A DNA stretch of 64,000 nt from Pseudobacteroides sp. (lineage in GTDB: Bacteria; Bacillota; Clostridia; Acetivibrionales; DSM-2933), in contig DAOOVO010000002.1 in assembly GCA_035370245.1 (NCBI GenBank), forward strand, positions 1-64,000, written 5' to 3'. The notes below the pieces were generated by a model. That model had not been told where the DNA came from, did not search any database, and saw nothing but the letters and a program-made list of their open reading frames with translations. The first letter of the stretch is position 1; each line of letters begins with the position of its first letter. Of this stretch, positions 6,798 to 36,200 are shown one piece after another. The position numbers and the translations under genes are program-made.

Positions 6798-7772
6798 CTA
6801 CACCTCCAGATTCTGTGCTAAGTACTGATAACCGAGAGCATTGGCACGGACATCTGTGACATATCGCACATTTTCCCCGGTACAACTGCCAAAACGCCTC
6901 ATAACTCCGGCTCCTCCACCAACATACACTACATTGGTAAAATCAAAGTCTATTTTCAATTCACGAAGCTTTGCTTCCACTTCAAGGGCATATCTTTTCA
7001 GCCCTGCATTGATGGTATCCATAATGGATTCCTTATTCTTGGCAATGGCTTTGGTATCTCCCGTTTCAATCACTTCATTGATGATATACTCTGGCACTTC
7101 CTTACCATACTTTGCTATGCACTCCTTCTGAATACGGTCAATGGCTGTAATCAGTCCCTGCTGATAAGTATGGCACTCGTCAAGGACGGGAACCTTATTC
7201 ACCACCGACATAATATCCAGTGTCCACGAACCACAATCCACCGCTGTCAGTCTGTCCATGCCTTCCATTCGGTTGGCAATCGCCGCATGGCACTGTGCAA
7301 ATACCCTTACCTTGCCAAAATGCACCACATATCTGACCCCTTCATAGTGAAAAGACACTTTGTCATTGGCACGAAGATAATTCTTAAATTCCTTCTTCTC
7401 TTTTCCATAAAGGGTAAGCGGAACACCCACCGCAAGATTTACCTTTACAGTTTTCGCTCCCGTGCGTCCTTTTAACTCCTTTGCAATGGCAGCCAGTGTC
7501 AGAAGATAATAATTTTCATTCTCTGTCTTGGTCTCCTGCTTACCCATTCTGCCCTGACCGATAACAAATTTTCTGCCTCTAAATTCAAGCAGGTTATCCT
7601 TGGTGGCTGGCATTGTCTGCAACTCCGTAATTCCATTCTCGAAAATGATATTTGGCGTTTTAATGGAACTCCAGCCGTGGTCAATGGCAATCAAAAACTC
7701 AGGAAGTACATCCATATAATTTCTGCCTTCTGCATTATTCAAGTTACTTTCTTTTCTCATAATCTCTGTCAT
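6798..7772 (-). CDS. actin-like ATPase of the ParM/StbA plasmid-segregation family
   Basis: phosphate-1 'IAIDHGWSSIKT', phosphate-2 'VDCGSWTLD', adenosine motif 'VYVGGGAG'; start placed at MTEIMRK (RBS AAGAGG), longer ORF extends to 7862. Confidence 0.7.
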   Translation of the reverse strand: MTEIMRKESNLNNAEGRNYMDVLPEFLIAIDHGWSSIKTPNIIFENGITELQTMPATKDNLLEFRGRKFVIGQGRMGKQETKTENENYYLLTLAAIAKELKGRTGAKTVKVNLAVGVPLTLYGKEKKEFKNYLRANDKVSFHYEGVRYVVHFGKVRVFAQCHAAIANRMEGMDRLTAVDCGSWTLDIMSVVNKVPVLDECHTYQQGLITAIDRIQKECIAKYGKEVPEYIINEVIETGDTKAIAKNKESIMDTINAGLKRYALEVEAKLRELKIDFDFTNVVYVGGGAGVMRRFGSCTGENVRYVTDVRANALGYQYLAQNLEV

Positions 7773-7874
7773 AAATACCTCTTTCTCCGGCAATCCGGGT
7801 GCCGGTCCCTTACATAATCTTTTCCTACTGTAAAAGGTGGCAGCCAAGCCACCACCTTCCATAAAAACAATTCA

Positions 7875-10916: not shown

Positions 10917-12404
10917 ATGTCAGATTTTTCATTAATTCCAATAATACCCTTTCTAATAGTAGCTGTAGTTTTCATTTTAATATTCAGTCTTTTTTCAATG
11001 TATCGAAAAGTACCACAGGACAAAGCATTGGTAGTCACAGGATTTAGAGGTAGAAGAGTAATCACCGGCGGTGGTGGAATTGTTATACCTTTGTTGGAAA
11101 GAACAGATATTATTTCACTTGAAAATATGCAGATTGATATTCGTATTGACGGTGCATTGACATCCCAGGGTGTTGGTATTTTAGCTGACGGTGTTGCAGT
11201 TGTCAAAGTTAAATCCGATAAAGAGTCAATACTTTCAGCAGCCGAGCAGTTCAACACTTCAAAGGGTTTAGATCACATGCTGGCTGTTATATCCAAAACA
11301 ACTCAACAGGTTCTTGAAGGTAAACTTAGAGAAATCGTATCAAGAATGACTGTTGAGGAGATTTATAAAGACAGGGAAACATTTGCTTCACATGTTCAGG
11401 GAGTTGCAGCAACCGAGCTGGAGAATTTAGGACTTGAGTTAAAAGTTTTGACAATCAAGGATATAGCCGATAAAAACGGATATTTAGAAGCCCTTGGAAA
11501 ACCAAGAATTGCAGAAGTTAAAAGAGATGCTCAAATCGCTGAGGCTAATGCAACAAAAGAAACCAAAATTAAAACAGCTGAAGCAACCAGAGAAGGTGAA
11601 GCTGCCAGAATCCAGGCAGAAACCCAAATCGCTGAAGCTAACAGGGATAAAGAGCTCAAAGTACAATCCTATATAAAGGATCAACAGACCGCAAAAGCAG
11701 AAGCGGACTTGGCTTACGATATAAAAGCAAACATAGTTAAAAAAGATGTAGCTGAAACCGAGATGCAAGTTGAAATCGTAAGAAAACAAAAAGAAATTGA
11801 GCTTGCCGAACAAGAAGCCATCAGAAAAGAAAAAGAACTTGAAGCCACAGTTAAAAAACATGCTGATGCAGAAAATTACAAAGCTACAAAAATTGCTGAT
11901 GCAAACAGATATAAGCAAGTTGCTGAGGCTGAAGCAAGGGCACGTGCAATAGAAATAGAAGGTGAAGCTAAGGCTAAGGCAAAAAGGGCTGAAGGTATGG
12001 CCGAAGTTGAAATAATTAAAGCAAAAGGTGAAGCGGAAGCTTTAGCTATGGCTAAAAAAGCAGAAGCATTTAAAATGTACAACGATGCGGCTGTCACTCA
12101 GATGATAATTGAAAAATTGCCTGATATCGCTCAAGCAATTGCAAGTCCTTTGGCTAAGACCGAAAAGATTGTAATCGTTGATAACGGAAACGGCGACGGC
12201 AACGGAAAAGGAGCATCCAAGGTTACAGGATATGTAACCGATATAATGTCACAGCTTCCGGAAACAGTTAAGGCTCTCACAGGTTTGAATGTTCTGGATT
12301 TATTGAAGAAGGATTCTTCTAAAAAGGTACAGCCGGTAAGGGAAAGCGAAGCCAACTCCGACGATTCTCAATCTCTTGAAGAAGTTAGTGCAACTAAAGA
12401 ATAA
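10917..12404 (+). CDS. flotillin / SPFH (band 7) domain protein
   Basis: N-terminal TM, SPFH domain, long Ala/Glu-rich coiled-coil (EA repeats); strong RBS AAAGGAGAGG. Confidence 0.85.
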   Translation: MSDFSLIPIIPFLIVAVVFILIFSLFSMYRKVPQDKALVVTGFRGRRVITGGGGIVIPLLERTDIISLENMQIDIRIDGALTSQGVGILADGVAVVKVKSDKESILSAAEQFNTSKGLDHMLAVISKTTQQVLEGKLREIVSRMTVEEIYKDRETFASHVQGVAATELENLGLELKVLTIKDIADKNGYLEALGKPRIAEVKRDAQIAEANATKETKIKTAEATREGEAARIQAETQIAEANRDKELKVQSYIKDQQTAKAEADLAYDIKANIVKKDVAETEMQVEIVRKQKEIELAEQEAIRKEKELEATVKKHADAENYKATKIADANRYKQVAEAEARARAIEIEGEAKAKAKRAEGMAEVEIIKAKGEAEALAMAKKAEAFKMYNDAAVTQMIIEKLPDIAQAIASPLAKTEKIVIVDNGNGDGNGKGASKVTGYVTDIMSQLPETVKALTGLNVLDLLKKDSSKKVQPVRESEANSDDSQSLEEVSATKE

Positions 12405-12417
12405 TAAATAAAATGCT

Positions 12418-12460
12418 GTGGGCCCAAAGAAGCTAAATCAGTTTCCCGGGCCCACTTTTA
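12418..12460. terminator. bidirectional Rho-independent terminator between convergent flotillin gene and the 9-gene operon
   Basis: GTGGGCCC...GGGCCCAC stem followed by TTTTA. Confidence 0.6.
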
Positions 12461-12475
12461 ATTTGCCAAATTTCA

Positions 12476-13690
12476 TCAATATTTCCTATCACTCTTTTTC
12501 AACTTTTGTGCCAATTCGTTTAAGTCATTTCCCTTTAAAGCGCCTTCCAATAACTGAGGTAAAAGCGTTGGAGTGCAGGCAAAGCAAGGTATTCCGATAT
12601 GGGCCAGTCTTCTTGATAGCCCTCCATCATATGAAGGTATGCCTTTATCGGATAGAGCCAGAAGGCATATTACCTTGACTCCCGACTCATGCATCTCAGT
12701 TATCCTTCTTACAAGTGAAGCTTGATTGCCCCCTTCATAGAGGTCAGAGATCAATATAAAAAGAGTCTTTTTAGGATCTGTTATAAACTGGCTGCAATAT
12801 GCCACCGACTTGTTTATATCAGTACCCCCTCCCAACTGGATTCCAAAAAGCATATCCACAGGATCATTGCCGCATTGCTCTGTAAGATCCACCACCTCTG
12901 TATCAAAGGCAACTATTCTTGTGTTAAGTGCCGACATGCTTGAAAAAATGGAACCGGCTATGGATGCATATATGACCGACTCGGCCATGGAACCGCTCTG
13001 GTCAATATCCAATATGACATTCCATTGGTTTGAACGCTTTGCACGGTCAAAGAAATAAATCCTCTCGGGAATAATCTTATTATATTCCTTGTTATAGTTT
13101 TTGAGGTTACGGTTTATTGTGTACTTCCAATCTATACTTGAAGCACTTGGTATAGGTGAATGATTGCGTTTGTTTAATGCACCCGTTACAGCTTTCCTGA
13201 TGTCATTTTCCAGCCTCTTGTTTATATCCTCAACAACCGTTCTTACCAACTGCCTGGCAGTTTCCTTGGTCCTTTCAGGGATTTTTCCCTTTAATGCCAT
13301 AAGGGTAGCTACCATTTCTATATCAGGCTTTACATTCTTTAGAACCTCAGGTTCAAAAAGCAGCTGCTTCAAGCCCTTTCGCTCAATTGCATCAGTCTGA
13401 ATAACCGAAACAATATCCTCAGGGAAACAAGTTCTTATATCGGTAAGCCATTTTGCCAATTTAGGTGAGGAATGGCCTTTTCCTGCCGAACGTGAACCTT
13501 TAGACCCCTGACTTGCCAAGTCTCCTTCATCACCCGAAGTTTCATCATAAATTGAGGCTAAAGCTTCATCCATAATAAGCTCATCCTGGTCCAGACAAAT
13601 GCCTTCCTTTGAATATGTATCCAACATTTCACTGCCTTTTTCACCTAAAATCAGTCTCCATCGTTTAATAAGCTTTGTATCCATCATCAT
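12476..13690 (-). CDS. von Willebrand factor A (vWA) domain protein (YehP-like)
   Basis: MIDAS motif 'DIDQSGSM'; last gene of operon; overlaps upstream gene by 4 nt. Confidence 0.8.
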   Translation of the reverse strand: MMMDTKLIKRWRLILGEKGSEMLDTYSKEGICLDQDELIMDEALASIYDETSGDEGDLASQGSKGSRSAGKGHSSPKLAKWLTDIRTCFPEDIVSVIQTDAIERKGLKQLLFEPEVLKNVKPDIEMVATLMALKGKIPERTKETARQLVRTVVEDINKRLENDIRKAVTGALNKRNHSPIPSASSIDWKYTINRNLKNYNKEYNKIIPERIYFFDRAKRSNQWNVILDIDQSGSMAESVIYASIAGSIFSSMSALNTRIVAFDTEVVDLTEQCGNDPVDMLFGIQLGGGTDINKSVAYCSQFITDPKKTLFILISDLYEGGNQASLVRRITEMHESGVKVICLLALSDKGIPSYDGGLSRRLAHIGIPCFACTPTLLPQLLEGALKGNDLNELAQKLKKSDRKY

Positions 13691-15972
13691 ATATCTCCAA
13701 AATCAAATTCGTTAATATCTTCAAGCACTTTTTGTTCCTCTTCTTCAAGCTCCCTGTTTAAGATGTCGCTGGCTTCTTCGCCTCCAACACCCCATATCTC
13801 ACCTAATATTTCACAGACGTTTCTCTTTTCTGAAGGACCAAAGCTGCTGAAAGCCCTTCTTAAAAAGACAAGAGCACGTTTAAATCCATCATCCTCCAAA
13901 GATTCTACATAAAGAGATATCTGCTCCCATAAGGCAGTTCTTGCAAGGAGTGCATATTTATTCCTTAAAGACAATCCCTCAAACCAGCCTGCTCCAATAT
14001 CAGCTTCAATCCCGGGTGAAAGTCTTCTGGTAACCTCAGCGGAAAGTCGGTCGTTATCCATAAGATTTCTTTCGAGGAGTATGGAACAAGCATATCCTGA
14101 GAGCTTGGGGTTCCTGTCGTCAAGGCTTGCAAGCTTTTTAAGCTCTTCGAGCCATGTCTCTTCATTCACCAGATTATAATGTTCTAAAGAAATGGAGTTT
14201 AAACTGTTTATTGATTCAATTACACTCTTAGCCGCTTCGTTATCGCATCTTGCAGCTTCAACCAGCAGCAAGGCTCCACGCAAAAACAACTGGCTAAGAA
14301 GTGGAATAAAGTGGCTTGTATCAAACTTCCTTATGTCTCCATAACTTATAACAATTGCCAAATCTTTTGCTGCAGCTGCAATCTCATTAAAAGCTCCCGA
14401 ATCCACTGCAAGTCTTTGAAGCTCTTTCCTGGCCATTTCCATTGCATCGACCAGTCCGCACATGCATGCCTCCCTGATAACTGCGGAAGCTTCTTCAACC
14501 CTCTCGCATTTTTCCAGCATATCTTTTAATGCATAAGCTGAAGCAAGCTCTATAGTCTCTCCCTTTAGAGTAGACTCAACCAACTCAATTTCAGCCTCAG
14601 GTGTCCACCTTAAAGTCCAGGCTTCCGCCCATGTAGCTGACTGCTGAGCACGGGGCTTATATTTCTGAAAGCTCACTCCCAAAACCCTTAATCTATGCAG
14701 AAAGAATGACCGATTTAAATCAAGGTAGGCGGCATCCTTTGATTGCACCCTTCTGTTTTCCCTCAAGTCCAGCTCAATATCCATTGCAACGGCGGACCTG
14801 TATTTATCCAACTTAAGCCTTTTGAGCTCCCTGTAAAAATCATCCTGTATTGATGTTCTGCTCACCCCTTCAGGTAAAGAACCTATTCCAGTCCCAATCT
14901 CAATACGGGCAACCGCTTCCGAAACTGCAGACAGTTCACCATAACCAAGGCAAACAACAGCTGCATCCCTCAAATCCTTCAATACAGGCGCCGTTCCCCC
15001 TCTCATGGCTGACACTGCATTAGCAAGCCTCACTCCCTCAATGACTTCTGCCGATGAGCGATGAGTACCGCTTTCCCTCATGCTTCCTGCAATCCCTGAT
15101 AAATAGAGTGCCGGAAGTCGCTTTAGGTCATTTCTCCTCATACAGTTCCACATGTATTCAAAATACTGAGGTGCACTATTACCCGCACCATAGCCTGATC
15201 TGGAAGAAAGCTTGTAGTATGAGTAGGGCATAAGTGTCAGCTTGGTTTTTACCCTTGGAAGGCTTTCAAACTCTTCATCAGTCATTGGTGGCAATTCCGG
15301 TCCAAGCACTGAAGAATGGTAAGCCCCTGTTACTACAACCACTTTTTGGGCCGAATGGCCTTTATCTATAGTTTCCCTGATTTTCTTTCTCATATAGGCT
15401 TCCCTGACAAGATTCTGAGCCATATGGGATGGCGATTCTTTAGACAGCTCCCTTAAACCTTTTCCAAACTCATAGACTCCCAGCCTGTATGAATCCGTTG
15501 AAAGGTTATGCTCAAAGTTTCTCTCCCAGTATGATTCATGATCCTCTTCCCCTGCCGCTTCTGCCCATTTCTCATAAATACTTTCACCTTGAGGCTGTAC
15601 TTCACTGTCACCTATATCCCCTGTTCGCAGGTATTCGAGGGTTAAAAACACATCAGATGGCAAATCTATAAACTCTGCAAGAACACCGTTATTGTTTGCC
15701 CATACCAATGCCTGGTATTCAGGTGAATATTCAGCCATTGGGTATAAAAGGGTCTTTATTGGCAGCTCTTCGGTGTATGCAAGCACTGCAAAGGGCGGCT
15801 TAGTACCCGGTGCCGTAAAATATTCTATTTGGGAATTTGCATCCGAGAGGCCTTCAATCAATACTGCAGTGGGCTTCACTTCATCTAAAAATTTAAGAAG
15901 GTGATAAGCCCCGCCTGGAGACAAATGCCTTATACCGAAAAAATGAGGCGTGTATTTTTGCATTCTACACAT
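13687..15972 (-). CDS. large hypothetical protein (761 aa), YehM/DUF5682-like by size and position between MoxR ATPase and vWA genes
   Basis: operon position and length match E. coli yehM (assignment from memory, unverified); no catalytic motif recognised. Confidence 0.5.
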   Translation of the reverse strand: MCRMQKYTPHFFGIRHLSPGGAYHLLKFLDEVKPTAVLIEGLSDANSQIEYFTAPGTKPPFAVLAYTEELPIKTLLYPMAEYSPEYQALVWANNNGVLAEFIDLPSDVFLTLEYLRTGDIGDSEVQPQGESIYEKWAEAAGEEDHESYWERNFEHNLSTDSYRLGVYEFGKGLRELSKESPSHMAQNLVREAYMRKKIRETIDKGHSAQKVVVVTGAYHSSVLGPELPPMTDEEFESLPRVKTKLTLMPYSYYKLSSRSGYGAGNSAPQYFEYMWNCMRRNDLKRLPALYLSGIAGSMRESGTHRSSAEVIEGVRLANAVSAMRGGTAPVLKDLRDAAVVCLGYGELSAVSEAVARIEIGTGIGSLPEGVSRTSIQDDFYRELKRLKLDKYRSAVAMDIELDLRENRRVQSKDAAYLDLNRSFFLHRLRVLGVSFQKYKPRAQQSATWAEAWTLRWTPEAEIELVESTLKGETIELASAYALKDMLEKCERVEEASAVIREACMCGLVDAMEMARKELQRLAVDSGAFNEIAAAAKDLAIVISYGDIRKFDTSHFIPLLSQLFLRGALLLVEAARCDNEAAKSVIESINSLNSISLEHYNLVNEETWLEELKKLASLDDRNPKLSGYACSILLERNLMDNDRLSAEVTRRLSPGIEADIGAGWFEGLSLRNKYALLARTALWEQISLYVESLEDDGFKRALVFLRRAFSSFGPSEKRNVCEILGEIWGVGGEEASDILNRELEEEEQKVLEDINEFDFGDI

Positions 15973-17053
15973 TCAACTCCCTACATGCATTATAAAGGTC
16001 CCTCCACTCGGCTCCACGCCTTTTTAAAACATTATCTATATATTCACGCCATACAAGCTTATCCTTTTCCTCGTCCTTTACAACTGCTCCCTGCAGACCT
16101 GCAGCCAAATCATGGCTGGTTATACTGCCATCCCCAAAGCTTGCAGCAAGTGCCATGCTGTTTGCAAGCAATGAAATAGCTTCAGCTGTTGACATAACAC
16201 CACTTGGCGACTTTACTTTTTCCTTGTTGTCCAATGTACTGCCGGTCCTTAATTCCCTGAAAATAGTAACAATCTTTGCCACCGAATCCTCGGCAGGAAG
16301 GGCAGCTTGAAGCTCAAGATTCTCAGCTAATTCTCCCACCCTTTTCCTTACTATTTCAATTTCAGTATCTATGTCCCCCGGCGTTGGCAGGACAACTATG
16401 TTGAAACGTCTTTTTAGTGCCGCTGACATGTCATTTACGCCACGGTCTCTGGTATTGGCCGTTGCAATAAGATTAAATCCCCTTACAGCAGGTATTTCAA
16501 GCCCGAGCTCCGGCACGGATATTCTTTTTTCTGACAATATGGATATCAATGCATCCTGAACCTCCGATGCACATCTGGATATTTCCTCAAATCTTACAAT
16601 CCCGCCTTCCTCCATACACTTTAAAACAGGACTTTTTACAAGTGCCTCCATAGACGGGCCATTGGCAAGAAGCATTGCATAATTCCACGAATACCTTATG
16701 TGTTCCTCGGTTGTACCGGCTGTTCCCTGCACCACCTGGGTGGAATTTCCGTTAATCGCCGCTGCAAGATGTTCCGACAACCAGGACTTTGCCGTTCCTG
16801 GATCACCGATGAGCAAAAGTGCCCTGTCAGTCACAAGGGTAGATATTGCAATTTCTACCAATCTCTTGTTTCCTATATATTTAGGTATAATATCAACACC
16901 CTTAACCTTGCCTCCTGTTATGTATGTTAGTACCGACTGGGGAGACATTTTCCAGCCTGCAGGTATTCTGTTCTCTTCTGCTGAAATTAAAGCCTCTATT
17001 TCCTTTTCATACTGTATTTCAGCAGGTAACCTTAAAACACTATTATTTGACAT
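15965..17053 (-). CDS. MoxR-like AAA+ ATPase (AAA_5; YehL-like)
   Basis: Walker A 'GDPGTAKS', Walker B-like 'GIVRFEEISR', sensor/arginine-finger region typical of MoxR family. Confidence 0.8.
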   Translation of the reverse strand: MSNNSVLRLPAEIQYEKEIEALISAEENRIPAGWKMSPQSVLTYITGGKVKGVDIIPKYIGNKRLVEIAISTLVTDRALLLIGDPGTAKSWLSEHLAAAINGNSTQVVQGTAGTTEEHIRYSWNYAMLLANGPSMEALVKSPVLKCMEEGGIVRFEEISRCASEVQDALISILSEKRISVPELGLEIPAVRGFNLIATANTRDRGVNDMSAALKRRFNIVVLPTPGDIDTEIEIVRKRVGELAENLELQAALPAEDSVAKIVTIFRELRTGSTLDNKEKVKSPSGVMSTAEAISLLANSMALAASFGDGSITSHDLAAGLQGAVVKDEEKDKLVWREYIDNVLKRRGAEWRDLYNACRELNV

Positions 17054-17111: not shown

Positions 17112-18995
17112 CTAAATTAACTTCTTCAAATATTCACCCGCTTCAATGAGCTTAAATGCACTATCATGATCGCATTTCTTTGCATATTCCAAAATAACAT
17201 CGGCATTTTCAGGGGGTAAAAGCTTTATCAATTCTGCAAGCTGATCAATGTAGTAACCAAGGTAGTACCTTTTGCTTTTTATATTAAAGTCCAACAATTC
17301 AATTACAACCTCTGCAGCTTTAGGATATCCCGCTTGTATAAGCCCCTTAACCTTAGGGATCGCTTTATATAAATCACGGCCGTTGTCCTTTTTAAGACAT
17401 TCGAGAAGATGATTTATCGTTACATCGTCTCCCCTGCTTGTTAGCAGAGCGGCAAGATCGCTTTCACCGACTTTAGACAATACAGGTGCCCACCTTGTAT
17501 CAACTGCTATACACCCCTTATCTATGCTGACCGGCTTAGTGTTGGTTGACGGATCAGCGGCCGATATAACCTTTACCGCATTTAAATTACAAAGTCTTCT
17601 TAAGCTACCGATAATGATTTTTGATTTGGCAGTATTTCCACCGGTCAAAAATCCTGAATATGTCTCAAACACCTGAGCCGGAGGCTTTATATATACGGCT
17701 GCTTCAAATGCATAATTTAAATAAAGGCCATTATGTTCATTTCCTGCCTCAGCAAGCAGTTCATAAGCATTCACAGTTCGCATTTTTAAAAGCAGTCCTG
17801 CAGCCATTTGGGCTAAAGTAGGATATTGTCCAAAATCTACATCCCGAAGCTTTATCCGGCTTAGCTCCCCGGTGTGCTCCATGCACTTTTTTAAGAACTG
17901 GAAAATACCCTCATCTTTTCTTCCTTCCATACATGAAAGCACATTATAAAAGTGCCCAACTTCCTGCTTATCAGCAGGTTCATCTTTTGGAGAGTCTCCC
18001 GATTTTAATACTGCAAGAATATTTTTTAAGCCAACTTCAGCTTCATTAAGAAGATAATTTACAATCTCCCTGGAAGGATTTACCTTCATAGTTTTCAGTA
18101 CTGCGGTCTTATCCTTTCCCTTGAATATTTCAATAAGCCTGTTTACAACTTTAGACGCATCTACAATCTCTGCCGCTTCTAAGGCAGCTTCTCTTATTTC
18201 CTTCTTCTTATCCTTTGTGAGTTCTATAAACATATCATCAAATTCGGGAAAATTCTTTAGTATTTTTATGGCACTGACTCTTACAGCGGTACTTCCCTTT
18301 TCGTTTGCCAGGAAAAACAGCTCTTTTTCTTCTTCTCCCGACAAATCCCAAATCAACTCAAGTATTCTGGCATCACCTTTTCCGCCTTCAAATGAAAAAT
18401 GTTTCCTTAATACCTTTGCAATACCCTTTCCATATCCTTTCAGTATTTCAAATGCCAGGTCGGCCACTTCATAATACTGCTCATTTAAAGCACTAATCAA
18501 AGGATATAAAAGCCTTAAATCACTAAATATCCCCTCTTTTTGAGCCTCACGAATTATTTCCAATCTTCCCTGTCCTTTATTAAGAAGGGCATTGGCCACA
18601 GGCTTGAGCCTTCTAAATGAAATATCGGTATTGACATCGAGGCATTCCGGTTCAATATCTTTGAAATCTCCTTTAATACCCGTTTCACCCTGAGTATACA
18701 GCACAGCATTTACAAGTCCTGCCAGCTCCAAAAGCTTGTCAGACGCTTTCCCATCCTGGGGCTCAATAAGGGCTTCAAGCATGCCGGAAATCCTAGCAAA
18801 AACAGGTGCAGTCTCACCGGCTTTCTTAAGCTGAGGTAAAAGCTTTTTAAGCCTAAAATCACCTATTGCAAGCTCCGAGCCTGCTATCATAAGTCTTCTG
18901 ACCTCACCTTGCAAATCATATAGTAACGAAATACTCATATTCTCACTCCATTTATACATATTTCCGGAATTCAGCAAAATCACATTAGAATCCAA
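17112..18995 (-). CDS. alpha-helical (HEAT/ARM-like) repeat protein, function unknown
   Basis: 627-aa ORF overlapping SWIM gene stop by 11 nt; helical-repeat character inferred from composition only. Confidence 0.45.
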   Translation of the reverse strand: MDSNVILLNSGNMYKWSENMSISLLYDLQGEVRRLMIAGSELAIGDFRLKKLLPQLKKAGETAPVFARISGMLEALIEPQDGKASDKLLELAGLVNAVLYTQGETGIKGDFKDIEPECLDVNTDISFRRLKPVANALLNKGQGRLEIIREAQKEGIFSDLRLLYPLISALNEQYYEVADLAFEILKGYGKGIAKVLRKHFSFEGGKGDARILELIWDLSGEEEKELFFLANEKGSTAVRVSAIKILKNFPEFDDMFIELTKDKKKEIREAALEAAEIVDASKVVNRLIEIFKGKDKTAVLKTMKVNPSREIVNYLLNEAEVGLKNILAVLKSGDSPKDEPADKQEVGHFYNVLSCMEGRKDEGIFQFLKKCMEHTGELSRIKLRDVDFGQYPTLAQMAAGLLLKMRTVNAYELLAEAGNEHNGLYLNYAFEAAVYIKPPAQVFETYSGFLTGGNTAKSKIIIGSLRRLCNLNAVKVISAADPSTNTKPVSIDKGCIAVDTRWAPVLSKVGESDLAALLTSRGDDVTINHLLECLKKDNGRDLYKAIPKVKGLIQAGYPKAAEVVIELLDFNIKSKRYYLGYYIDQLAELIKLLPPENADVILEYAKKCDHDSAFKLIEAGEYLKKLI

Positions 18996-20421
18996 GCCTT
19001 ATAATTCTGTTGTCCGTTATCAAACTGAGGGGAGCTGCAATCAATCTCCTCTTATCCATATCATGCCAAAACCTTAAAAGCATAACCTGATCCTTCAACA
19101 TTTGAGGTTTTAAAAGCTTTAATATGTTAATGCCTTCAGGCAAATACTCATTTTCCGGTTTTTCGAGAACCAGCCTTTGTCCTGCCTGATCTTCTATAAC
19201 AAACTCATCATCCACCATTCCAAACCTTGAGAATCTCAAAAGCATGACAGGTGATTTATCACTTAATGGATTTTTTATTTGATTTTTAATCAATTTGACA
19301 GCTTCAGAAAAGGATTCTTTTGCAAAGGATCTTATCTTTAGAAAATCTTCCAAGCATGCATCTCTCATATCGTTGTTTTCCCAACGCACCCTACAATTGA
19401 GATCTGTGGTAGGGTATGTGTAAAGTTCTTTTATCATCAGTACTTTTGAAACGGAATCATCTTCACGAATATATTTAACAGCTTTGAAGGGACGGAAATT
19501 GTATGTATTGTACACTTCACCGGAAATAAGGTTAAACCATATTCCGTTATCCACATATTCACCTCTAGGTATACTTGTGAATGACGTAAATGCAAGCTGT
19601 ATTAACTCAATATCGTTTTTGACAAGTCCCTGATTTTTAAGTTCATTAAGTTGCCACGTATAGCCAAGAGATTCCTCTATTGAGGAACTGGAATCAGGTG
19701 CTAAGTCACCCGATTCCAGCTTCTTTAAAAGATGCTCCTTCCCCTTTTTGCATAACGCATATAACCTGCTCAACAAATCCGAAGCATGGGTATAAACCTT
19801 CTCATGATTTTCATCTTCCGTAAAAAGGTATATAAACTCTCTCAAAGCTGCCTGAGAGCCCGAAAGATAATAATTTCCAAGCTGTTTTGCCTGATCTTCT
19901 AGAAGAGCAACAGTTTTCTTATTTATGGTTCCAAGGCCGTTTTGAACAATGCTGCAAATGAGCTTTTCTAAAATCTCAAGACCTTCAACCTGGGTTTTTA
20001 TTTTTTTCTTAAGTGCGGAAACGTTTACCTTCTTAGGCTCAGGCTGCTCCTGTTCTTTTTCCTTTTTCTTCTGTTCCTTTTTTTCAATCTTTTCACGCTT
20101 TTCCAAGATATCTTGAGGAACTTCCGCTTTTTCAAAGCTTTTGCCGCTTACATAGGCATACATAAGTCCTAATGCATGCTTGCACGGAAATTGCCTGCTA
20201 GGGCATGAACACCTGAAAACAGGACTTTCGGGCTTTATAAAGTCCGCAGATGTATTGTAATTGCTGCTTCCGCTTCCAGAACATTCACCGAAAATAATGG
20301 TCCCATCTTCCGATATGTTAAGCTTAACAAATTTGTTTTTCTTAACCAATCCCCACCCGTTCGTTACGGCACTCTGGTTAGGGGCTAACTGGTTTATATA
20401 TTCTTCGTTAATATTAATCAT
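18985..20421 (-). CDS. SWIM zinc-finger protein (YehQ-like)
   Basis: CxCxnCxH signature 'CSCPSRQFPCKH'; RBS AAGGCAGGG. Confidence 0.75.
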   Translation of the reverse strand: MININEEYINQLAPNQSAVTNGWGLVKKNKFVKLNISEDGTIIFGECSGSGSSNYNTSADFIKPESPVFRCSCPSRQFPCKHALGLMYAYVSGKSFEKAEVPQDILEKREKIEKKEQKKKEKEQEQPEPKKVNVSALKKKIKTQVEGLEILEKLICSIVQNGLGTINKKTVALLEDQAKQLGNYYLSGSQAALREFIYLFTEDENHEKVYTHASDLLSRLYALCKKGKEHLLKKLESGDLAPDSSSSIEESLGYTWQLNELKNQGLVKNDIELIQLAFTSFTSIPRGEYVDNGIWFNLISGEVYNTYNFRPFKAVKYIREDDSVSKVLMIKELYTYPTTDLNCRVRWENNDMRDACLEDFLKIRSFAKESFSEAVKLIKNQIKNPLSDKSPVMLLRFSRFGMVDDEFVIEDQAGQRLVLEKPENEYLPEGINILKLLKPQMLKDQVMLLRFWHDMDKRRLIAAPLSLITDNRIIRLGF

Positions 20422-20440: not shown

Positions 20441-21880
20441 TTATTCTACCTTAACCCAACCTTTTTTTATATTTTCCGTCATAAACTTATTGAGCAGCTC
20501 AAATATCTGCTCCCTGTTGTTTGATACCCTCATATCACGTTGAAGAGGTTCCTTCCTGTCTGAGCTGAAATTGGTATAATGCAGTACATATGCCGGGTAT
20601 CTGTCGTCAATCTCTTCCTTGTTTGTTTTCCAAACAACAAACTTCTGTACCATGAGCTTGCCCTTGCTCTCTTTTTTATAGACTTCCCTGAACTGAAGCT
20701 CGCTTTTAGGCAGCTCCGCTCCACTGTCTTCCTTCCCCAATTCAGGCAAATAAGTGACATCCGATAATTGTGAGAGTCTTAAGTTTTGCGGGTCAGCGGT
20801 TTTATCATGTCTTAATCTTACAAAAATGGGATAAATAAAGCTAATGCCTTTATTAAATGACTTGAGCTTATATTTTCCATCACTGATTTCAAGCATTGGG
20901 TTTGTTATTAATGTATTTCCCGATTCAAACAAAACATCATTGTAGCTTATTTCAATTATCGTTTCAGGTTTAACCATCCTGAATGCCACATGATTGGAAT
21001 CCGTTTCAATATAGTCGGAATCAATCACCATGTCCGACAGCTTAGAGAGTAATTCTTTTTTAAGCTCTTCACTAAAGCCGTTTCCTGTCTTTCCTACAAT
21101 CTGATACTCGTTATCTCCCGTCATAAGTGCAAGAAGCAGTGTCCTTATCTGGCCTTTACTGTCACCTACACCTTCAGTGTAGCCCACTATTACAACATCA
21201 ATATTATGCTTTGGCTTAATCTTATATACAAGGGGAAGATCTGATCTTACAACAAGACCTTCGGAGCAATCCTCCTCCACCCACTTTTTATATACATCCT
21301 TCAGCTCAGCTTTGGAAGCTGCCTCTTTATATGCTACAGGCTTTACATTAGCACCATCCTTAAATATTTCAGAAAGCTTTTCATGTATTTCATTGTAGCC
21401 CTTAACCTTTGGGGAGGCACCATCTATCTCAATAATATCAAAAGGTGCCAGTTTAAGCTTTCCTATTTCCGCCTCCTTTGCAAGTGTGGACAGCACATCA
21501 AAGACCCTTGTTCTGCCTTCGTCCTCGCAAAGATAAAGCTCGGCAGGAATTATTGCAGATGATATGCCTGCACTTTTTAAAAGCTTTCCGGCTTCCTCGG
21601 TACATGGAAGACCATATCTTAGAGTCCCGCCTGTATTAACAATAAAAGTGTCTTCGCCGTTGTAAAATATAACACTCATTTCACCGTCATATTTTCTTGT
21701 GATATAAAATTTCTCTCCTGCAACCCTGAAATCTATTTGCTCAGGGTTTATCGCTATAAAGTTTTTACATACATTTTTCTTGTAATCGGAAGCAACCTTT
21801 GCAGTTGCCTCATCAACTGCATTTACTGAACCCTCTAAATAGCCGTAGCTTTTATTGAGCTTGGATTTATCCAGTATCAT
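20441..21880 (-). CDS. ATP-dependent DNA ligase-like nucleotidyltransferase
   Basis: motif I 'RKYDGE' (KxDG), motif III 'PAELYL', motif IV 'EGLVVRS', motif V 'DVVIVGYTEGVGDSKGQIRTLLLA'. Confidence 0.65.
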   Translation of the reverse strand: MILDKSKLNKSYGYLEGSVNAVDEATAKVASDYKKNVCKNFIAINPEQIDFRVAGEKFYITRKYDGEMSVIFYNGEDTFIVNTGGTLRYGLPCTEEAGKLLKSAGISSAIIPAELYLCEDEGRTRVFDVLSTLAKEAEIGKLKLAPFDIIEIDGASPKVKGYNEIHEKLSEIFKDGANVKPVAYKEAASKAELKDVYKKWVEEDCSEGLVVRSDLPLVYKIKPKHNIDVVIVGYTEGVGDSKGQIRTLLLALMTGDNEYQIVGKTGNGFSEELKKELLSKLSDMVIDSDYIETDSNHVAFRMVKPETIIEISYNDVLFESGNTLITNPMLEISDGKYKLKSFNKGISFIYPIFVRLRHDKTADPQNLRLSQLSDVTYLPELGKEDSGAELPKSELQFREVYKKESKGKLMVQKFVVWKTNKEEIDDRYPAYVLHYTNFSSDRKEPLQRDMRVSNNREQIFELLNKFMTENIKKGWVKVE

Positions 21881-21882
21881 AC

Positions 21883-22578
21883 CTATACCCCCTTAAGTTC
21901 CATGTTTGTGAGATGGAGTATGAGGCAATACTTATCTCCATCAATCCGACCTTCTAAAAATCCCCTGTAAGGCACTCCTCCAGTTGTAAGAACAACAGGA
22001 TCGATACCCTTCTTTCCTCCTCCAACAAACATGAGGGAGTTGGACTCATGAAGGCTCTTTGCCATATCATACAGATAATCATATGTAAGACCGTTAACAT
22101 GCTTTATCTGATATTTTCTTGTAAAAACGAATTTTCTTATTGCCTGTTCCTTTGGAAACTTTTTACCCGTCCATTGAAGGGGAATTTCTCCCAATATATT
22201 GGCTTCCGTCTTTGAAAGATCCCTTCTCAATTTCTCGGTACCGTCAGGGTTCTTTACAACTTCAACAAGATTAACCCTGTATACTATTTTATTGTCCTTG
22301 CCTATGTATAATTTCTTTGTCCCGCTTACAAATCTGCCTGTCCTTTCCATATCTATTTCGGGATCGCCTTTAATAATCTCTTCCCCAAGTTTCACAAGGT
22401 CTCCGTATTTTTCTACAAGATACTCCTCACTTATTTCCAAAAGACCTTTTAATATCTTCACAGTTTTCTTTGGAGACCCATCCTTCAGCACATAATTTAT
22501 TTTGCTTTTTCTAGGAGTATTGTCCATGCCGACTACAGCGTCTCTCTTTTTCTCGTTAGATATATTTAATGACCTCAT
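21883..22578 (-). CDS. hypothetical protein (231 aa), second gene of operon
   Basis: ORF 3 bp upstream of ligase-like gene; no family recognised. Confidence 0.45.
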   Translation of the reverse strand: MRSLNISNEKKRDAVVGMDNTPRKSKINYVLKDGSPKKTVKILKGLLEISEEYLVEKYGDLVKLGEEIIKGDPEIDMERTGRFVSGTKKLYIGKDNKIVYRVNLVEVVKNPDGTEKLRRDLSKTEANILGEIPLQWTGKKFPKEQAIRKFVFTRKYQIKHVNGLTYDYLYDMAKSLHESNSLMFVGGGKKGIDPVVLTTGGVPYRGFLEGRIDGDKYCLILHLTNMELKGV

Positions 22579-22592
22579 ATATTAAGTCCTCC

Positions 22593-23204
22593 TCACATCA
22601 TACTAAAGTCGATATCCAGTTCTTCGGAGAATTCTTCGTCCTCTTCCACCGCATCCAAATAGCCGGCTTGTTCAAGGCCTATAAAGGCAAACTCGCAAGG
22701 CGACCCCACCAGAACAAATGCTTTTCCGTCATTTTGGAGTATGAATGCCTGACTGCTCTCATATCCGTCACGATAATTGAATGAAAATGTATATATTTTA
22801 TCTGATATTTCTTTAATAAAATCTGGATTTTCGTCTGCTCCACAAAGTTCATAAACTGTAGTTATCTGGTAGTCTAAAAACTCTTCTACTGTCACTGTTT
22901 CCGCCAACTCGATTACACCGGAAAAACTTGATGGAATAAGAGTTGCAGGATTGCCGTCACTATCTACTGCAACAAGTTCAGACCTTTCTACCCATTCATT
23001 TGACTGGTTTAAAATCCCTAGTCCTATGCAGCCTTTCGGAATTATGGCCGTACCTGATTCATCAACGCTAACCAGCTTGCATTCATTTCCGTCATCATCC
23101 AATGCAACAGTCTCCGTCCATCCATAAATCTTCTTTCTATCCACCTTATCTGGAGAGAATGAATATACACTGTCTCCCAGTTTAAACTGAAGTTCCCTTG
23201 CCAT
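22593..23204 (-). CDS. acidic hypothetical protein (203 aa), first gene of operon
   Basis: ORF 15 bp upstream of next gene; preceded by ~250-bp AT-rich promoter region. Confidence 0.45.
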   Translation of the reverse strand: MARELQFKLGDSVYSFSPDKVDRKKIYGWTETVALDDDGNECKLVSVDESGTAIIPKGCIGLGILNQSNEWVERSELVAVDSDGNPATLIPSSFSGVIELAETVTVEEFLDYQITTVYELCGADENPDFIKEISDKIYTFSFNYRDGYESSQAFILQNDGKAFVLVGSPCEFAFIGLEQAGYLDAVEEDEEFSEELDIDFSMM

Positions 23205-23373
23205 TACTTGGCCCCCTTTAATCTCGCATGATATATATTATTTTAGCAGTATGAACTGCAGTCTGTAAATAAGAGGTAGAGGAATTTACCCTTGACAATA
23301 CCTTTTACAAGACTGGTATAATTATATATAAATTTATTCATTATTCATGCATATTAAATGCGATAAATCTTTT

Positions 23374-23459: not shown

Positions 23460-23798
23460 ATGAACATACAGATATATGCCTTAAGAAAATGCTTCGATAC
23501 ACAAAAGGCGGAGCGGTATTTCAAGGAAAGGAAAATAAAATACCAGTTAATAGATCTTGCAAAATACGGTCTTAGTAAAGGTGAATTTGAGAGCGTAAAA
23601 AAAGCTGTAGGACTTGCAGAGCTTATTAATGACAAATGCAAGGAATATGAAACATTAAACATGCAGAGGCTTGGGACGGGCAAAGTAGCTGAAGAAGTAC
23701 TTTTTAAAAATCCCAAGCTCTATAGATCTCCAATAGTAAGAAACGGAAAACAAGCAACCGTTGGATACAAACCCGAAGTTTGGAAGGATTGGGAATAA
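23460..23798 (+). CDS. ArsC/Spx/YffB-family thioredoxin-fold protein
   Basis: 112 aa, N-terminal 'IQIYALRKCFDTQKAERYF' single-Cys ArsC-family signature; RBS AGGAAAGGAAA. Confidence 0.65.
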   Translation: MNIQIYALRKCFDTQKAERYFKERKIKYQLIDLAKYGLSKGEFESVKKAVGLAELINDKCKEYETLNMQRLGTGKVAEEVLFKNPKLYRSPIVRNGKQATVGYKPEVWKDWE

Positions 23799-33237: not shown

Positions 33238-36200
33238 TTAAATACCTAAATAGCTGCCGTTTTGCTTTAATCTGCCATCCTTCAGCATTTCATCAACTAT
33301 TTTATCCATATAAACTTTTATATCCTCATTAACTCTTTGAAATCCCAGCTTCTGGCATGATACTGTTGCCACCTGAGACCTTTCCAAACCGAATGATTCT
33401 TTTATAGAGCTTATTATAGCCTCAGCAATTTCTTCCTTTGAAATAAGCTCAATCTTTCTGCTGGCAGAAGGTAAGTCGCTTCTATCCCTTACTACGGGCA
33501 CTTTCATTGAAGCACACCATAGAAAATCGCCATTTATCACTATCCTGCCATCCCTTGACAAAATAGCACAAGCGTCATTTACAGATCTCTGGATAGAGCT
33601 TCCTGTCTTAGTAAGCTTTGAATTACTAATGACTCTTCTTGTAACTTCAAGAATATGAACCGGGCTTTCAACTTTAACTATTTTCTCAATGTACGGCACA
33701 AGCTTTTCAGGTTTATATATTTCTTCCTCATCAATAAACGGAATTTCTGCTACCACATATCTGTTTACAGTTTCCTCTTTATTTGAAACGCTGTTGTCAG
33801 ATCTTTCAATAACAATTGTATCGGCAACATCTGATTTATTCTTTAGCCCTACAACTTTAGCTTTCTCAATTGCCTCTATAAGCCTTTTCAATTGATCCTT
33901 GGGATTTCTGAACCAATCGGTACTCCAGACCCTAATTATATTCCATCCCTTATCCTCCAGAACAGACTGCCTGAGTCTGTCTCTATCCCTTGCCGATCTG
34001 GCACTATGGTAGGAAGCTCCGTCACATTCTATTCCAAGGATGTATCTGTTGTTATCTTTTGGATCAACTACAGCCAGGTCAATATAGAAGCCCGCACATC
34101 CAACCTGTTTCCGTACTGAATATCCCAAATCTGTTAAACTCTTGTACACTTCTTCTTCAAAGGGTGAATCGGATTCCCTGCCGGTCTCTATAGGTATATT
34201 TAAATTACCGTCCCTTGCATAAGTAAGGAATGTCTTTAATGCTTTTACACCTCTTGCATTGGTCCTTGAAAGATCTATATCCTCCGGTGCAAGGTTTGTA
34301 AACACTTCACACCTTAGCCTTGCTCTACTTATTAAAACATTGAGCCTTCTTTCTCCGCCATCATTGTTTAAAGGTCCAAAGTTCATGGCCAGATAGCCTT
34401 CTTTTGTTTTGCCGTACCCAACGCTTATAAATATTACATCCCTTTCATCCCCCTGTACATTCTCAAGATTTTTTACAAAAAACGGTTCATGGGGATGCAT
34501 ATTGAAGAACGGCTCAATTGACAGATCTTTCCTTCTCAAAAGTTCTATCTCGTCTATTATGGCCTGCATCTGTGACATACTGAAGGCAGCAACCCCCAGT
34601 GTCAGCTCGGGGCTGCTTTTGAAATGCTCAATCACTCTCTGGGCTACAAGCTTTGCTTCCGGCAAGTTAACCCTTGTGTTGCTTCTATCATAAGCCCCAT
34701 CCTTTACAAAGTTATATACAAGTCCCATTTTTTTGCTTGTATTATGGGGACTGGGGAATACCACCAGCTTGTTGTCATAAAACTCATAGTTCGAAACTGC
34801 TATAAGAGACTCATGGCGGCTTCTGTAGTGCCATCTCAGCATTCTTTGAGGTGCCTTCTGTGCTTCAAACAGAGCAAGTATGCTTTCTACATCTGCCGTT
34901 GAGTAATCATCGTCATCTTCTCCCTCAGGAGTTACCGTCTGTTCAAAAAAGCTTGTTGGAGGCATCTGCTTGCTGTCTCCCACAACAACCGCCTGCTTTG
35001 CCCTCATCAATGCGCCAAATGCCTCTACCGGCCTAACCTGGCTGGCTTCGTCAAATATAACCAGATCAAACCTAAGCCCTTCAGGGGGAAGAAAATTGGC
35101 AATGGATATGGGGCTCATCATAAATACAGGCTTTATTGCCTGAATGGCATTACCTGCTTTTAACATCAGCTTTCGAATAGGAAGATGCCTGGACTTTTTC
35201 TGAAACTCCCACAAAAGCACTCCTAACTGGCCGGTGTCTCCGCTGCCCTTGGGCATGTTGTCCCAATGTTTTTTGGCAAGCCTGATCTGATTGTGCTTTA
35301 TAAGTAATCTGTCATAATCCTGAAACCTTTTTACTACGCTCTCGTGTTTATCCTTTGCAAACTCTGCAATAGCAGGCCTTTCCCTAAATGCTATGTTTAA
35401 AAGGCATTCATACCAGTTATGCTGAAGTATTATATCAAGGCTCGTTCCATGTGGTTCGACATTAAGGGAGTAATCTACCAGCCCCTCTAATGACTCCTTT
35501 ATCAGAGCATCATTCATATGGTTAAAAACAACCATATCCTGGGTCTTTGACAGATTTCCCTTCCACAAATCAATACGGTCTTTTTGAGCAGTAAAATCAA
35601 TTTCCTTCAAATCGCCTGAAGGCGGAAAGGACTTAATGGTATCAAGCTCTAAAAATATTGAAAGGTTATTCATAGAATCAATAAACTTTCTTAATAAGCT
35701 TTCCAGCTTATCTGTCACAATGTCCTTGATTGCCAGCCAATAAGCTCTCTGCATGATTAGATCCGAAGGAACCGTCCCATCCTGAACATTCCTGTATAAG
35801 GAAATTATCCAGTCGGCTTTTGTCTTAATATCCTCCCAGCTCGACTCTTCACCTTTAAAGAGGCTACCGAAGAGAGACTTAATGTTATCCTTTTCTCCAT
35901 CTATTATTTTAATATTTATTTGATACTCTATAATTGCATCACAAATTGAAATCCATTCATTATAATTTTGAGGAAGTCCATTTTGGCAAAGCCCCATTAA
36001 AGTTGACTTTGCCCTTCTGTATTTTCCCGATAAAAACCTCCACCACTTGCCTCTATATATGTTCAATATCTGACGTACCTCGGAGACATTACTGTTCCAT
36101 GCATGAGGGATTATTGTGTTCCCATACTCTTTTTTAATTTTTTGTATCATCAATCCTGCATTAATGGTTTTATTTATCTCATATTCATTTATTTTCCATA

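Follow-up and report, generated by a model that had tools for sequence, protein, structure and literature searches.

A cryptic three-gene cassette linking an ATP-dependent DNA ligase to a putative Ku-fold protein in Pseudobacteroides-like Clostridia and other bacteria

The basic bacterial NHEJ machinery consists of Ku and an ATP-dependent ligase, as outlined in PMC5124664. In a census of complete prokaryotic genomes, 20.2% carried one ku gene and another 3.5% had two or more, and a lysine-rich basic C-terminal extension is frequent in canonical bacterial Ku (PMC4889933). WGR domains, described as the DNA-binding domains of bacterial MolR-like proteins (PMC7824862), have also been annotated in bacterial ligases, i.e., the NT-OB_2-WGR cluster of delta-proteobacteria and Planctomycetia and a P. 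marinus ligase with an N-terminal WGR. The relevant sections of Williamson & Leiros (2020, PMC7470946) note these enzymes as uncharacterized, report RNA binding for WGR domains, and make no mention of a Ku-like partner of WGR ligases.

Here, we analyzed a 64,000-nt stretch of Pseudobacteroides sp. DNA (contig DAOOVO010000002.1, positions 1 to 64,000; referred to as the window) and propose that its ATP-dependent DNA ligase probably acts as the enzyme of an NHEJ-like cassette, cryptic and spread horizontally, whose three genes encode an acidic protein, a Ku-fold protein, and a ligase with a WGR-like domain. Like the Ku (PF02735) and LigD systems of M. tuberculosis and B. subtilis, the cassette appears to encode a Ku-fold protein of ~230 aa beside a PF01068/PF04679 ligase, and its presumed job is likewise to bind DNA ends and ligate them. 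Unlike those systems, it includes a third conserved gene, for the acidic protein, that has no canonical counterpart. The cassette genes and the domains of the ligase are as follows:

22593..23204, (−) strand: cassette gene 1 (unk203), a 203-aa acidic protein with a pI of 4.05 (gene order, alignment).
21883..22578, (−) strand: cassette gene 2 (unk231), a 231-aa basic protein with a pI of 9.46 and a predicted Ku-type fold (structure model).
20441..21880, (−) strand: cassette gene 3, an ATP-dependent DNA ligase of 479 aa (Pfam, NCBIfam, PHROGs, PDB sequences, alignment).
21215..21730, (−) strand: adenylation (nucleotidyltransferase) domain of the ligase, residues 51–222 (Pfam PF01068; invariant residues).
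20801..21157, (−) strand: OB-fold domain of the ligase, residues 242–360, with motif VI residues R355, R357, D359, and K360 (Pfam PF04679; invariant alignment columns).
20444..20701, (−) strand: predicted C-terminal WGR-like domain of the ligase, residues ~394–479 (structure model, fold match; conserved motifs).

The ligase ORF runs from ATG to stop at the position given in a preliminary description of this DNA, which had left its (−) strand unstated. Judged by its conserved residues, the encoded enzyme is an ATP-dependent DNA ligase, catalytically intact, with a minimal adenylation and OB core. Specifically, residues 51–222 match Pfam DNA_ligase_A_M (40.2 bits; cut-off, 26.2), residues 242–360 match DNA_ligase_A_C (38.2 bits; cut-off, 27.5), PHROG_114 (ATP-dependent DNA ligase) matches at 1.1e-17, and the closest solved relatives among PDB sequences are archaeal ligases and human LIG1 (E-values of 4e-17 to 1e-14). 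Across an alignment of 52 sequences spanning ~38–90% identity, invariant residues were found in motif I (K63-x-D65-G66, where K63 is the catalytic, adenylatable lysine), motif III (E114), motif IIIa (F147), motif IV (E207-G208), and motif V (K220/K222), as were all four of the listed motif VI residues. Like minimal LigC and LigB/Lig1-type cores, the cassette ligase combines adenylation and OB domains with all six motifs; unlike the Lig1/LigB-type enzymes, it has no N-terminal DNA-binding domain and instead carries a conserved segment of ~50 aa ahead of the adenylation domain, as well as the putative WGR-like domain within the C-terminal ~118 residues that fall outside the Pfam matches. It also differs from LigD in scoring far under the cut-offs of the LigD models (TIGR02779, 63 versus 227.75 bits; TIGR02776, 50.9 versus 373.2; NF007210, 51.2 versus 989), as it does for all NCBIfam equivalogs, and in having, by Pfam, no polymerase/primase or phosphoesterase domain, with the WGR-like domain instead; among the genes around the ligase, no conserved neighbor of either kind was found.

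The peptides on which the preliminary description had based its ligase call are all present (ITRKYDGEMSV at residues 60–70, IIPAELYL at 110–117, EGLVVRS at 207–213, and DVVIVGYTEGVGDSKGQIRTLLLA at 228–251). The last of these, which had been read as motif V, is the first strand of the OB domain, and the true motif V is LVYKIKPK (217–224). An N-terminal extension of ~110 aa had likewise been described in error, because K63 is the motif-I lysine and the adenylation domain begins at approximately residue 51. The call itself, for which matches to RNA-ligase or capping-enzyme families or a missing motif-I lysine had been named as grounds for doubt, is upheld, since the window protein matches DNA-ligase families and neither of the other two, and K63 is present and invariant. 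An RNA-ligase or RNA-repair activity is also very improbable. Such an activity would fit the RNA binding reported for WGR domains (see above), the capacity of eukaryotic Ku to bind RNA, and the precomputed PF09414 (RNA_ligase) match of some family members; however, the matches of the window protein in Pfam, NCBIfam, PHROGs, and PDB sequences are all to DNA-ligase families, its OB domain is of the DNA-ligase type with motif VI, and there is no end-healing kinase/phosphatase partner as is typical of RNA-repair operons.

We explored the gene neighborhood of the ligase in 98 related loci, using testable loci as denominators (75 for the ligase, 81 for unk203, and 47 with enough flanking DNA). The ligase gene directly follows the Ku-like gene on the same strand in 70 of 75 loci and lies within 0.8 kb of it in 3 more; in 76 of 81, the acidic gene comes right before the Ku-like gene. 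This arrangement spans Clostridia, Bacteroidales, Treponema, Betaproteobacteria, Planctomycetota, and Akkermansia. The constant partners of the ligase are these two upstream genes, not the downstream ATPase-vWA genes, and the earlier view of a stand-alone ligase with no obvious partner was mistaken, as the upstream "unknown gene" encodes a protein of predicted Ku fold that almost always accompanies it. In locus L003, an 81%-identical relative, an intrinsic terminator lies right after the ligase gene, which indicates that the cassette is an autonomous unit. Two other sets of candidates were set aside: the large recurrent neighbors in Limnoglobus (MMPL, nitrite/sulfite reductase, and PSCyt2/PSD1) are housekeeping genes and not cassette members, and a vWA identity for the N-terminal extension of ~210–250 aa in the ligases of L083, L086, and L091 found no support from Pfam, phmmer against PDB, or hhalign against the window vWA family.

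Identities of 50–65% between distant phyla, together with variable genomic neighborhoods, argue that the cassette has spread by horizontal transfer. This pattern would also fit a conflict system (anti-phage defense or mobile-element counter-defense) whose end binding and ligation protect or reseal DNA under attack, as would the occasional position of the cassette beside a MoxR-vWA module, a type of module that occurs in conflict systems. We nevertheless consider this reading highly unlikely, since the three cassette proteins have no significant PADLOC match, the neighboring genes are housekeeping genes rather than defense islands, and neither a toxin nor a nuclease effector is present. In addition, a tblastn search with unk231 returned no match in 50,697 phage or 72,556 plasmid records, which leaves a phage or plasmid origin of the cassette unsupported.

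The unk231 protein is predicted to have the Ku three-dimensional fold, with a beta-barrel core and arms in the structure model, and may be the DNA-end-binding partner of the ligase. Its family comprises 576 representatives at the 50%-identity level, with no Pfam domain and annotated only as "hypothetical protein." Unlike canonical Ku, it shows no detectable sequence similarity: there was no Pfam match for the window protein at E ≤ 10 or for 43 members at E ≤ 1, no Ku was among the matches of the family profile to PDB sequences (hmmsearch), and hhalign against two canonical Ku alignments gave a probability of <1%, which is weak negative evidence because these Ku profiles are shallow (2 and 6 sequences). 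Neither unk203 nor unk231 had a match in PADLOC, PHROGs, NCBIfam, or Pfam, and in profile searches of PDB sequences, the WGR-like ligase tail, the Ku-like family, and unk203 gave chance-level matches only (CotH, 0.013; ribosomal uS7, 0.075; Nova-1 KH, 1.1). Canonical Ku was not found by tblastn in the window or in the cassette loci searched, a result that counts for the NHEJ-like cassette. The Ku homolog that the preliminary description had suggested seeking elsewhere in the genome appears, by fold and with no sequence match, to be the gene immediately upstream of the ligase.

Like canonical Ku, some Ku-like members (P0362, P0400, P0409, and P0361) have long basic C-terminal tails, here rich in Lys, Ala, and Pro, and one tail of the family gives a histone-H1-like HC2 match; the window protein has no such tail. 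In contrast to the acidic cores of canonical Ku (mean pI 5.5), that of the Ku-like protein is basic, which counts against the Ku reading, and the neighbor survey found no conserved polymerase or nuclease end-processing partner next to the cassette, which counts against end joining. It is conceivable, albeit unlikely, that the Ku likeness has been over-read from a mediocre model and that unk231 is a SPOC/Ku-type beta-barrel for peptide or protein binding (e.g., of the acidic tail of unk203), in which case the cassette would consist of a ligase and two regulatory subunits acting in nick sealing or another DNA transaction that is not end joining. Counted for the NHEJ-like cassette are P0436, in which a Ku-like domain is fused to a WGR-like domain, and the charge complementarity between the Ku-like protein (pI 9.5) and WGR-like tail (pI 9.4) on the one hand and unk203 (pI 4.05) on the other.

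The confident model of the ligase tail, a basic domain (pI 9.36) of four predicted beta-strands and one helix, fits the PARP-type WGR domains that sense DNA breaks. Compared with the WGR domains of PARP1, PARP2, and PARP3, it lacks the classical W-G-R signature, in place of which YTNFSSxR and NIKKGW are conserved, and it is joined to a ligase rather than to an ADP-ribosyltransferase. No Pfam WGR (PF05406) match was obtained for this tail or for 30 homologous tails. The cassette ligases resemble the NT-OB_2-WGR and P. marinus ligases, as far as these are covered in the sections cited above, in fusing a bacterial ATP-dependent ligase core to a WGR-type domain; the ligases described there have an OB_2-type OB domain and a Pfam-recognizable WGR, whereas the OB domain of the cassette ligases is of the PF04679 type and their WGR-like domain escapes Pfam. 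By analogy, the tail might bind DNA breaks.

The acidic protein ends in a conserved acidic run followed by an invariant (I/L)DFSM(M/F) tip, in which D199 and F200 are invariant and M202 is near-invariant. None of its 116 homologs is named, and PDB sequences, like the four databases above, contained no match to it. A KH-like "IIPKGG" resemblance is weak and was not relied on. The protein may serve as an adaptor or a regulator and dock on a basic partner.

Downstream of the cassette, the window contains a five-gene module. Its genes and the elements bounding the putative transcription unit are as follows:

18985..20421, (−) strand: SWIM zinc-finger protein, 478 aa, first module gene (Pfam PF04434).
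17112..18995, (−) strand: HEAT-repeat-like protein, 627 aa (weak HEAT_2 match just under the cut-off).
15965..17053, (−) strand: MoxR-type AAA+ ATPase, 362 aa (Pfam AAA_5 at 9.3e-38, bpMoxR).
13687..15972, (−) strand: DUF5682 protein, 761 aa (Pfam PF18934 at 1.1e-138).
12476..13690, (−) strand: vWA (CoxE-like) protein, 404 aa, last operon gene (Pfam PF05762 at 1.1e-47).
12403..12455, (−) strand: possible terminator 3′ of the vWA gene, a GTGGGCCC...GGGCCCAC hairpin with a large loop, then a T-rich run (read from the sequence).
23240..23269, (−) strand: best promoter-like site, TTTACA-18-TAAAAT with an extended −10 TG (consensus scan, 10/12 matches).
23460-23798, (+) strand: ArsC-family gene, opposite in strand to the cassette and bounding the intergenic region.

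The Limnoglobus homolog of the HEAT-repeat-like protein likewise matches HEAT_2. The possible terminator sits between the convergent vWA and flotillin-like genes and was omitted by the terminator scan because its loop exceeds 8 nt. The promoter-like site falls within the 255-nt intergenic region upstream of unk203, where such sites are no more numerous than in shuffles, and is at most suggestive as a candidate operon promoter. Gene spacing is nearly as first described (20 and 3 bp): the SWIM gene begins after a 19-nt gap beyond the ligase stop, and 2 nt separate the ligase start from the end of the upstream gene. Co-transcription of the ligase and SWIM genes, which had been called almost certain, is plausible given the 19-nt gap and the lack of a terminator-like site between them on that strand.

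These observations bear on whether the ligase is a working part of the SWIM-MoxR-DUF5682-vWA system, serving its nucleic-acid transaction, with the upstream genes incidental. The ligase and SWIM genes share a strand in the window, L001, L002, and L061, where 19–70 nt with no terminator-like site separate the ligase stop from the SWIM start, and Limnoglobus (Planctomycetota), with a ligase 39% identical, has the same module 3–4 kb from the cassette; chance alone is unlikely to have brought the two together twice independently. However, the module is present at only 5 of the 47 loci with enough flanking DNA, i.e., in the window's clade and one Planctomycete genus, so that the cassette occurs without it at ~90% of loci. 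It was not found beside the cassette in Betaproteobacteria, Treponema, or other Clostridia, while the upstream genes are linked in >90% of loci, and it is cleanly absent from the otherwise syntenic L003, where the terminator follows the ligase. We therefore regard a ligase dedicated to the module as quite unlikely, and the preliminary framing of a ligase inside an ATPase-vWA operon fails; the link between cassette and module in Pseudobacteroides-like Clostridia is secondary and lineage-specific. The five genes carry the same domain set as other SWIM/MoxR/DUF5682/vWA clusters, among which we take E. coli yehLMPQ, close to the gene for the WGR-containing MolR/YehI, to belong, and a WGR theme may connect the cassette with the module. 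A literature search of incomplete coverage found neither a function for the module nor any description of the cassette, an absence that is not proof of novelty.

The Ku-like fold of one constant partner makes the NHEJ-like cassette, which occurs in many anaerobes, look like an unrecognized bacterial break-repair kit. In such a kit, the basic Ku-like protein, presumably dimerizing into a ring as Ku does, would bind broken DNA ends and hold them, and the ligase, adenylated on K63, would be positioned on the break by its WGR-like domain, by analogy with PARP WGR domains, and would then seal the strand. The SSB-like acidic tail and hydrophobic tip of the acidic protein would dock on, or regulate, one of the basic DNA-binding modules. 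The cassette would thus represent a non-canonical counterpart of bacterial Ku-LigD end joining without the LigD polymerase and phosphoesterase domains, and in the window's lineage, it would have been joined with the SWIM-HEAT-MoxR-DUF5682-vWA module into one transcription unit.

A bolder version, which we offer as speculation and consider improbable, is a new end-joining machine made up of a sequence-cryptic Ku ring, a ligase with a PARP-like WGR, and an acidic adaptor, widespread in anaerobes (Clostridia, Bacteroidales, spirochaetes, and Planctomycetota) that Ku/LigD searches do not flag as NHEJ-proficient, in which the MoxR AAA+/vWA module would load the Ku-like ring or extract it from sealed DNA. 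The p97/VCP-dependent removal of Ku in eukaryotes offers an analogy for such ring extraction, and the vWA domain built into eukaryotic Ku70/80 would be echoed by the vWA module.

Our analysis corrects the first reading of this locus in that its unusual feature is the hidden upstream partner of the ligase and not the downstream operon. Ku and PARP (WGR) modules belong to separate pathways in eukaryotes; the cassette, if interpreted correctly, would bring a Ku-like end binder and a WGR break sensor together in bacteria, and its compact set of ligase, Ku-like protein, and adaptor might find use in genome engineering in Clostridia. If the Ku-like protein is a functional Ku, the phylogenetic reach of bacterial end joining would have been underestimated, particularly among gut and digester anaerobes.

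We analyzed the ligase gene together with the two genes immediately upstream of it, which form a candidate three-gene repair cassette encoded as follows.

22593..23204 (−): 203-aa acidic protein
21883..22578 (−): 231-aa Ku-like protein
20441-21880 (−): 479-aa ATP-dependent DNA ligase

The ligase ORF proposed in the preliminary description kept its span and its 479-aa length, begins with ATG and lies on the minus strand, and all of the peptides quoted from it were found in the product. Its assignment as an ATP-dependent DNA ligase was borne out by two Pfam ligase domains above curated thresholds, and the other matches were likewise all ATP-dependent DNA ligases, namely, PHROG_114, NCBIfam models (every score far under the equivalog cut-off) and solved archaeal, LIG1 and LIG4 structures; neither RNA ligases nor capping enzymes were among the matches of the window protein. 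Alignment of 52 relatives (38-90% identity) revealed that each of the six motifs, motif I with its lysine included, has invariant catalytic residues, indicating an intact active site. Since this lysine is already residue 63, the ~110-aa N-terminal extension described earlier had to be dropped, and the segment then read as motif V is instead the beginning of the OB domain.

Domains (Pfam, curated thresholds passed) and motif residues (invariant among 52 relatives) of the ligase
DNA_ligase_A_M: residues 51-222
DNA_ligase_A_C: residues 242-360
Motif I: K63, D65, G66
Motif III: E114
Motif IIIa: F147
Motif IV: E207, G208
Motif V: K220, K222
Motif VI: R355, R357, D359, K360

The C-terminal ~118 residues of the ligase returned no match in any sequence library searched, and in the 52-relative alignment their conservation equals that of the catalytic core. 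AlphaFold modeling from 27 tails gave a confident structure (pLDDT ~95 across residues 394-479) with four strands followed by one helix. The domain is basic (pI 9.4), and we describe its modeled fold as WGR-like. A search for WGR family membership by sequence gave neither a Pfam match nor the W-G-R signature, in place of which the ligase tails conserve YTNFSSxR and NIKKGW. One report notes bacterial ligase-WGR fusions as never characterized, and those it covers have another type of OB domain and a Pfam-visible WGR, unlike the window ligase (PMC7470946). Separately, a divergent 607-aa DUF4116-repeat protein adjoining the cassette in a metagenomic locus (L086:3220-5043, −) has ~80 initial residues that appear WGR-like by eye.

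Using the window operon proteins as tblastn queries against 16 related genomic loci, we found both upstream genes with the ligase in lineages ranging from Clostridia to Planctomycetota and Akkermansia, whereas the downstream SWIM-HEAT-MoxR-DUF5682-vWA genes do not travel with it. Gene order was kept on annotated contigs of a betaproteobacterium, Treponema and two further Clostridia, where products of about 200, 235 and 478 aa are encoded among unrelated housekeeping genes. A linkage census was then extended by 80 metagenomic loci, counting for each test the loci with enough DNA.

Linkage census of the cassette
Ligase directly 3′ of the 231-aa gene, same strand: 70/75 loci
203-aa acidic gene directly 5′ of the 231-aa gene: 76/81 loci
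At least 2 SWIM-module genes in the locus: 5/47 loci

Three of the five loci without an adjacent ligase have one 0.7-0.8 kb off, because the ligase itself has an N-terminal extension. Cassette ligases of 676-722 aa occur in three metagenomic relatives (L086:6470-8500, L083:1991-4129 and L091:1032-3200), the added length being a conserved N-terminal extension of ~210-250 aa; a vWA identity, proposed by eye, gained no support from Pfam, from a phmmer search of the PDB or from hhalign comparison with the window vWA family. In one of the two loci with no ligase downstream (L053:5-706 and 839-2938), low-complexity sequence comes after the Ku-like gene, and next to it a 699-aa protein, which resembles a CHAT-type protease by eye, is encoded convergently. 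Four Limnoglobus MAGs (L010, L011, L014 and L016) contain a second copy from this ligase family (39% identity to the window ligase), which stands alone, without a Ku-like or acidic gene, beside nitrite/sulfite reductase and PSCyt2/PSD1 genes. Identities between phyla are 50-65% and genomic contexts vary, which implies horizontal spread; no cassette copy was found in the phage and plasmid collections searched.

The 231-aa family has 2,135 matches in the clustered database, none of which is named or has a Pfam domain; clustering at 50% identity leaves 576 representatives, and the family is more conserved than the ligase. None of the sequence methods used linked it to Ku. The AlphaFold model was moderate (pLDDT 65 overall, 72-92 across residues 130-227), and both structure aligners returned Ku and little else; specifically, the top 50 Foldseek hits were all Ku chains (E ~1e-4), with alignments reaching ~250 columns and TM-scores of 0.3-0.4. 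The predicted fold is Ku-like, and this reading is independently supported by domain architecture. Longer members add Lys/Ala/Pro-rich basic tails, one matching a histone-H1-like HC2 model, and so have the layout documented for canonical bacterial Ku, a core with a basic, extended C-terminus (PMC4889933). P0436 (381 aa) joins the Ku-like domain straight to a ligase-type WGR-like domain with no catalytic core between, being either a natural fusion or a deletion product or assembly artifact. Against the Ku reading stand the negative sequence results and the 231-aa core, which is basic (pI 9.5), unlike canonical Ku cores. The protein is likely a Ku-fold DNA-end-binding partner, a likeness in modeled fold and context, not Pfam-level membership. 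Unusually for bacteria, another member, P0361 (460 aa), combines a Lys-rich linker with a SAM (sterile alpha motif) domain at the C-terminus.

The 203-aa protein is acidic (pI 4.05), with no match in any library searched. Its C-terminus (window 22593-22670) displays a conserved acidic run and an (I/L)DFSM(M/F) tip, with D-F invariant and M near-invariant among 42 homologues from several phyla (alignment A5), an arrangement that recalls the docking peptide at the C-terminus of SSB. The protein may bind one or other basic module as an adaptor or regulator, which is the weakest part of our model; some lineages in the census (Limnoglobus and Akkermansia) lack it wholly.

The five module-bearing loci represent two lineages, the window's clade (L001, L002 and L061) and Limnoglobus (L012 and L015). 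L003, with an 81% identical ligase and the same flotillin-like flanking gene, lacks the 8-kb module and has a textbook intrinsic terminator 3′ of the ligase stop; therefore, the cassette is an autonomous unit, for which the module is dispensable in about 90% of loci. In the window, 19 nt separate the ligase stop from the SWIM start, with no terminator-like site there on that strand, and the cassette is joined to the MoxR-vWA operon by a lineage-specific junction. That the module recurs beside the cassette in two phyla far apart suggests a functional link of some kind; a speculative role is the AAA+-driven loading, or removal, of a ring trapped on DNA. On the two Limnoglobus contigs, a Ku-like gene and ligase have the module close by. 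L061 (JGI contig Ga0255341_1000887, 46 kb) encodes Ku-like and SWIM-to-vWA proteins 98-100% identical to the window's and probably derives from the window's organism or one nearly identical to it; among named genomes, Pseudobacteroides cellulosolvens is the closest (L001; ligase 90% identical).

The window surroundings are no recognizable defense or repair island, the flanks being ordinary (lysA, TrmB, ArsC, a flotillin-like Band_7 protein, a P-type ATPase, an M23 peptidase and MatE). Two further genes were recorded.

33238-37965 (−): 1575-aa large helicase-nuclease (DUF4011, SF1 helicase domains AAA_11/AAA_12, MTES_1575 restriction-endonuclease-like domain, DUF3320), about 11 kb from the operon
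6798-7862 (−): actin-like ALP/ParM-type protein (ALP_N, MreB-like_C and ParM matches), in a chromosomal-looking context

The searchable literature yielded no description of the cassette, and its three proteins are named hypothetical or plain "ATP-dependent DNA ligase" in databases. The nearest known system is bacterial Ku-LigD NHEJ, with which the cassette has logic and folds in common, although it falls outside that system by sequence-based membership tests and its accessory parts differ. We propose that DNA ends would be bound by the Ku-like protein and that the ligase, once adenylated at K63, would seal the break, on which its WGR-like domain would position it, with assembly modulated by the acidic protein. 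Overall, the cassette may constitute a non-canonical NHEJ-like pathway that works without LigD polymerase or nuclease domains.
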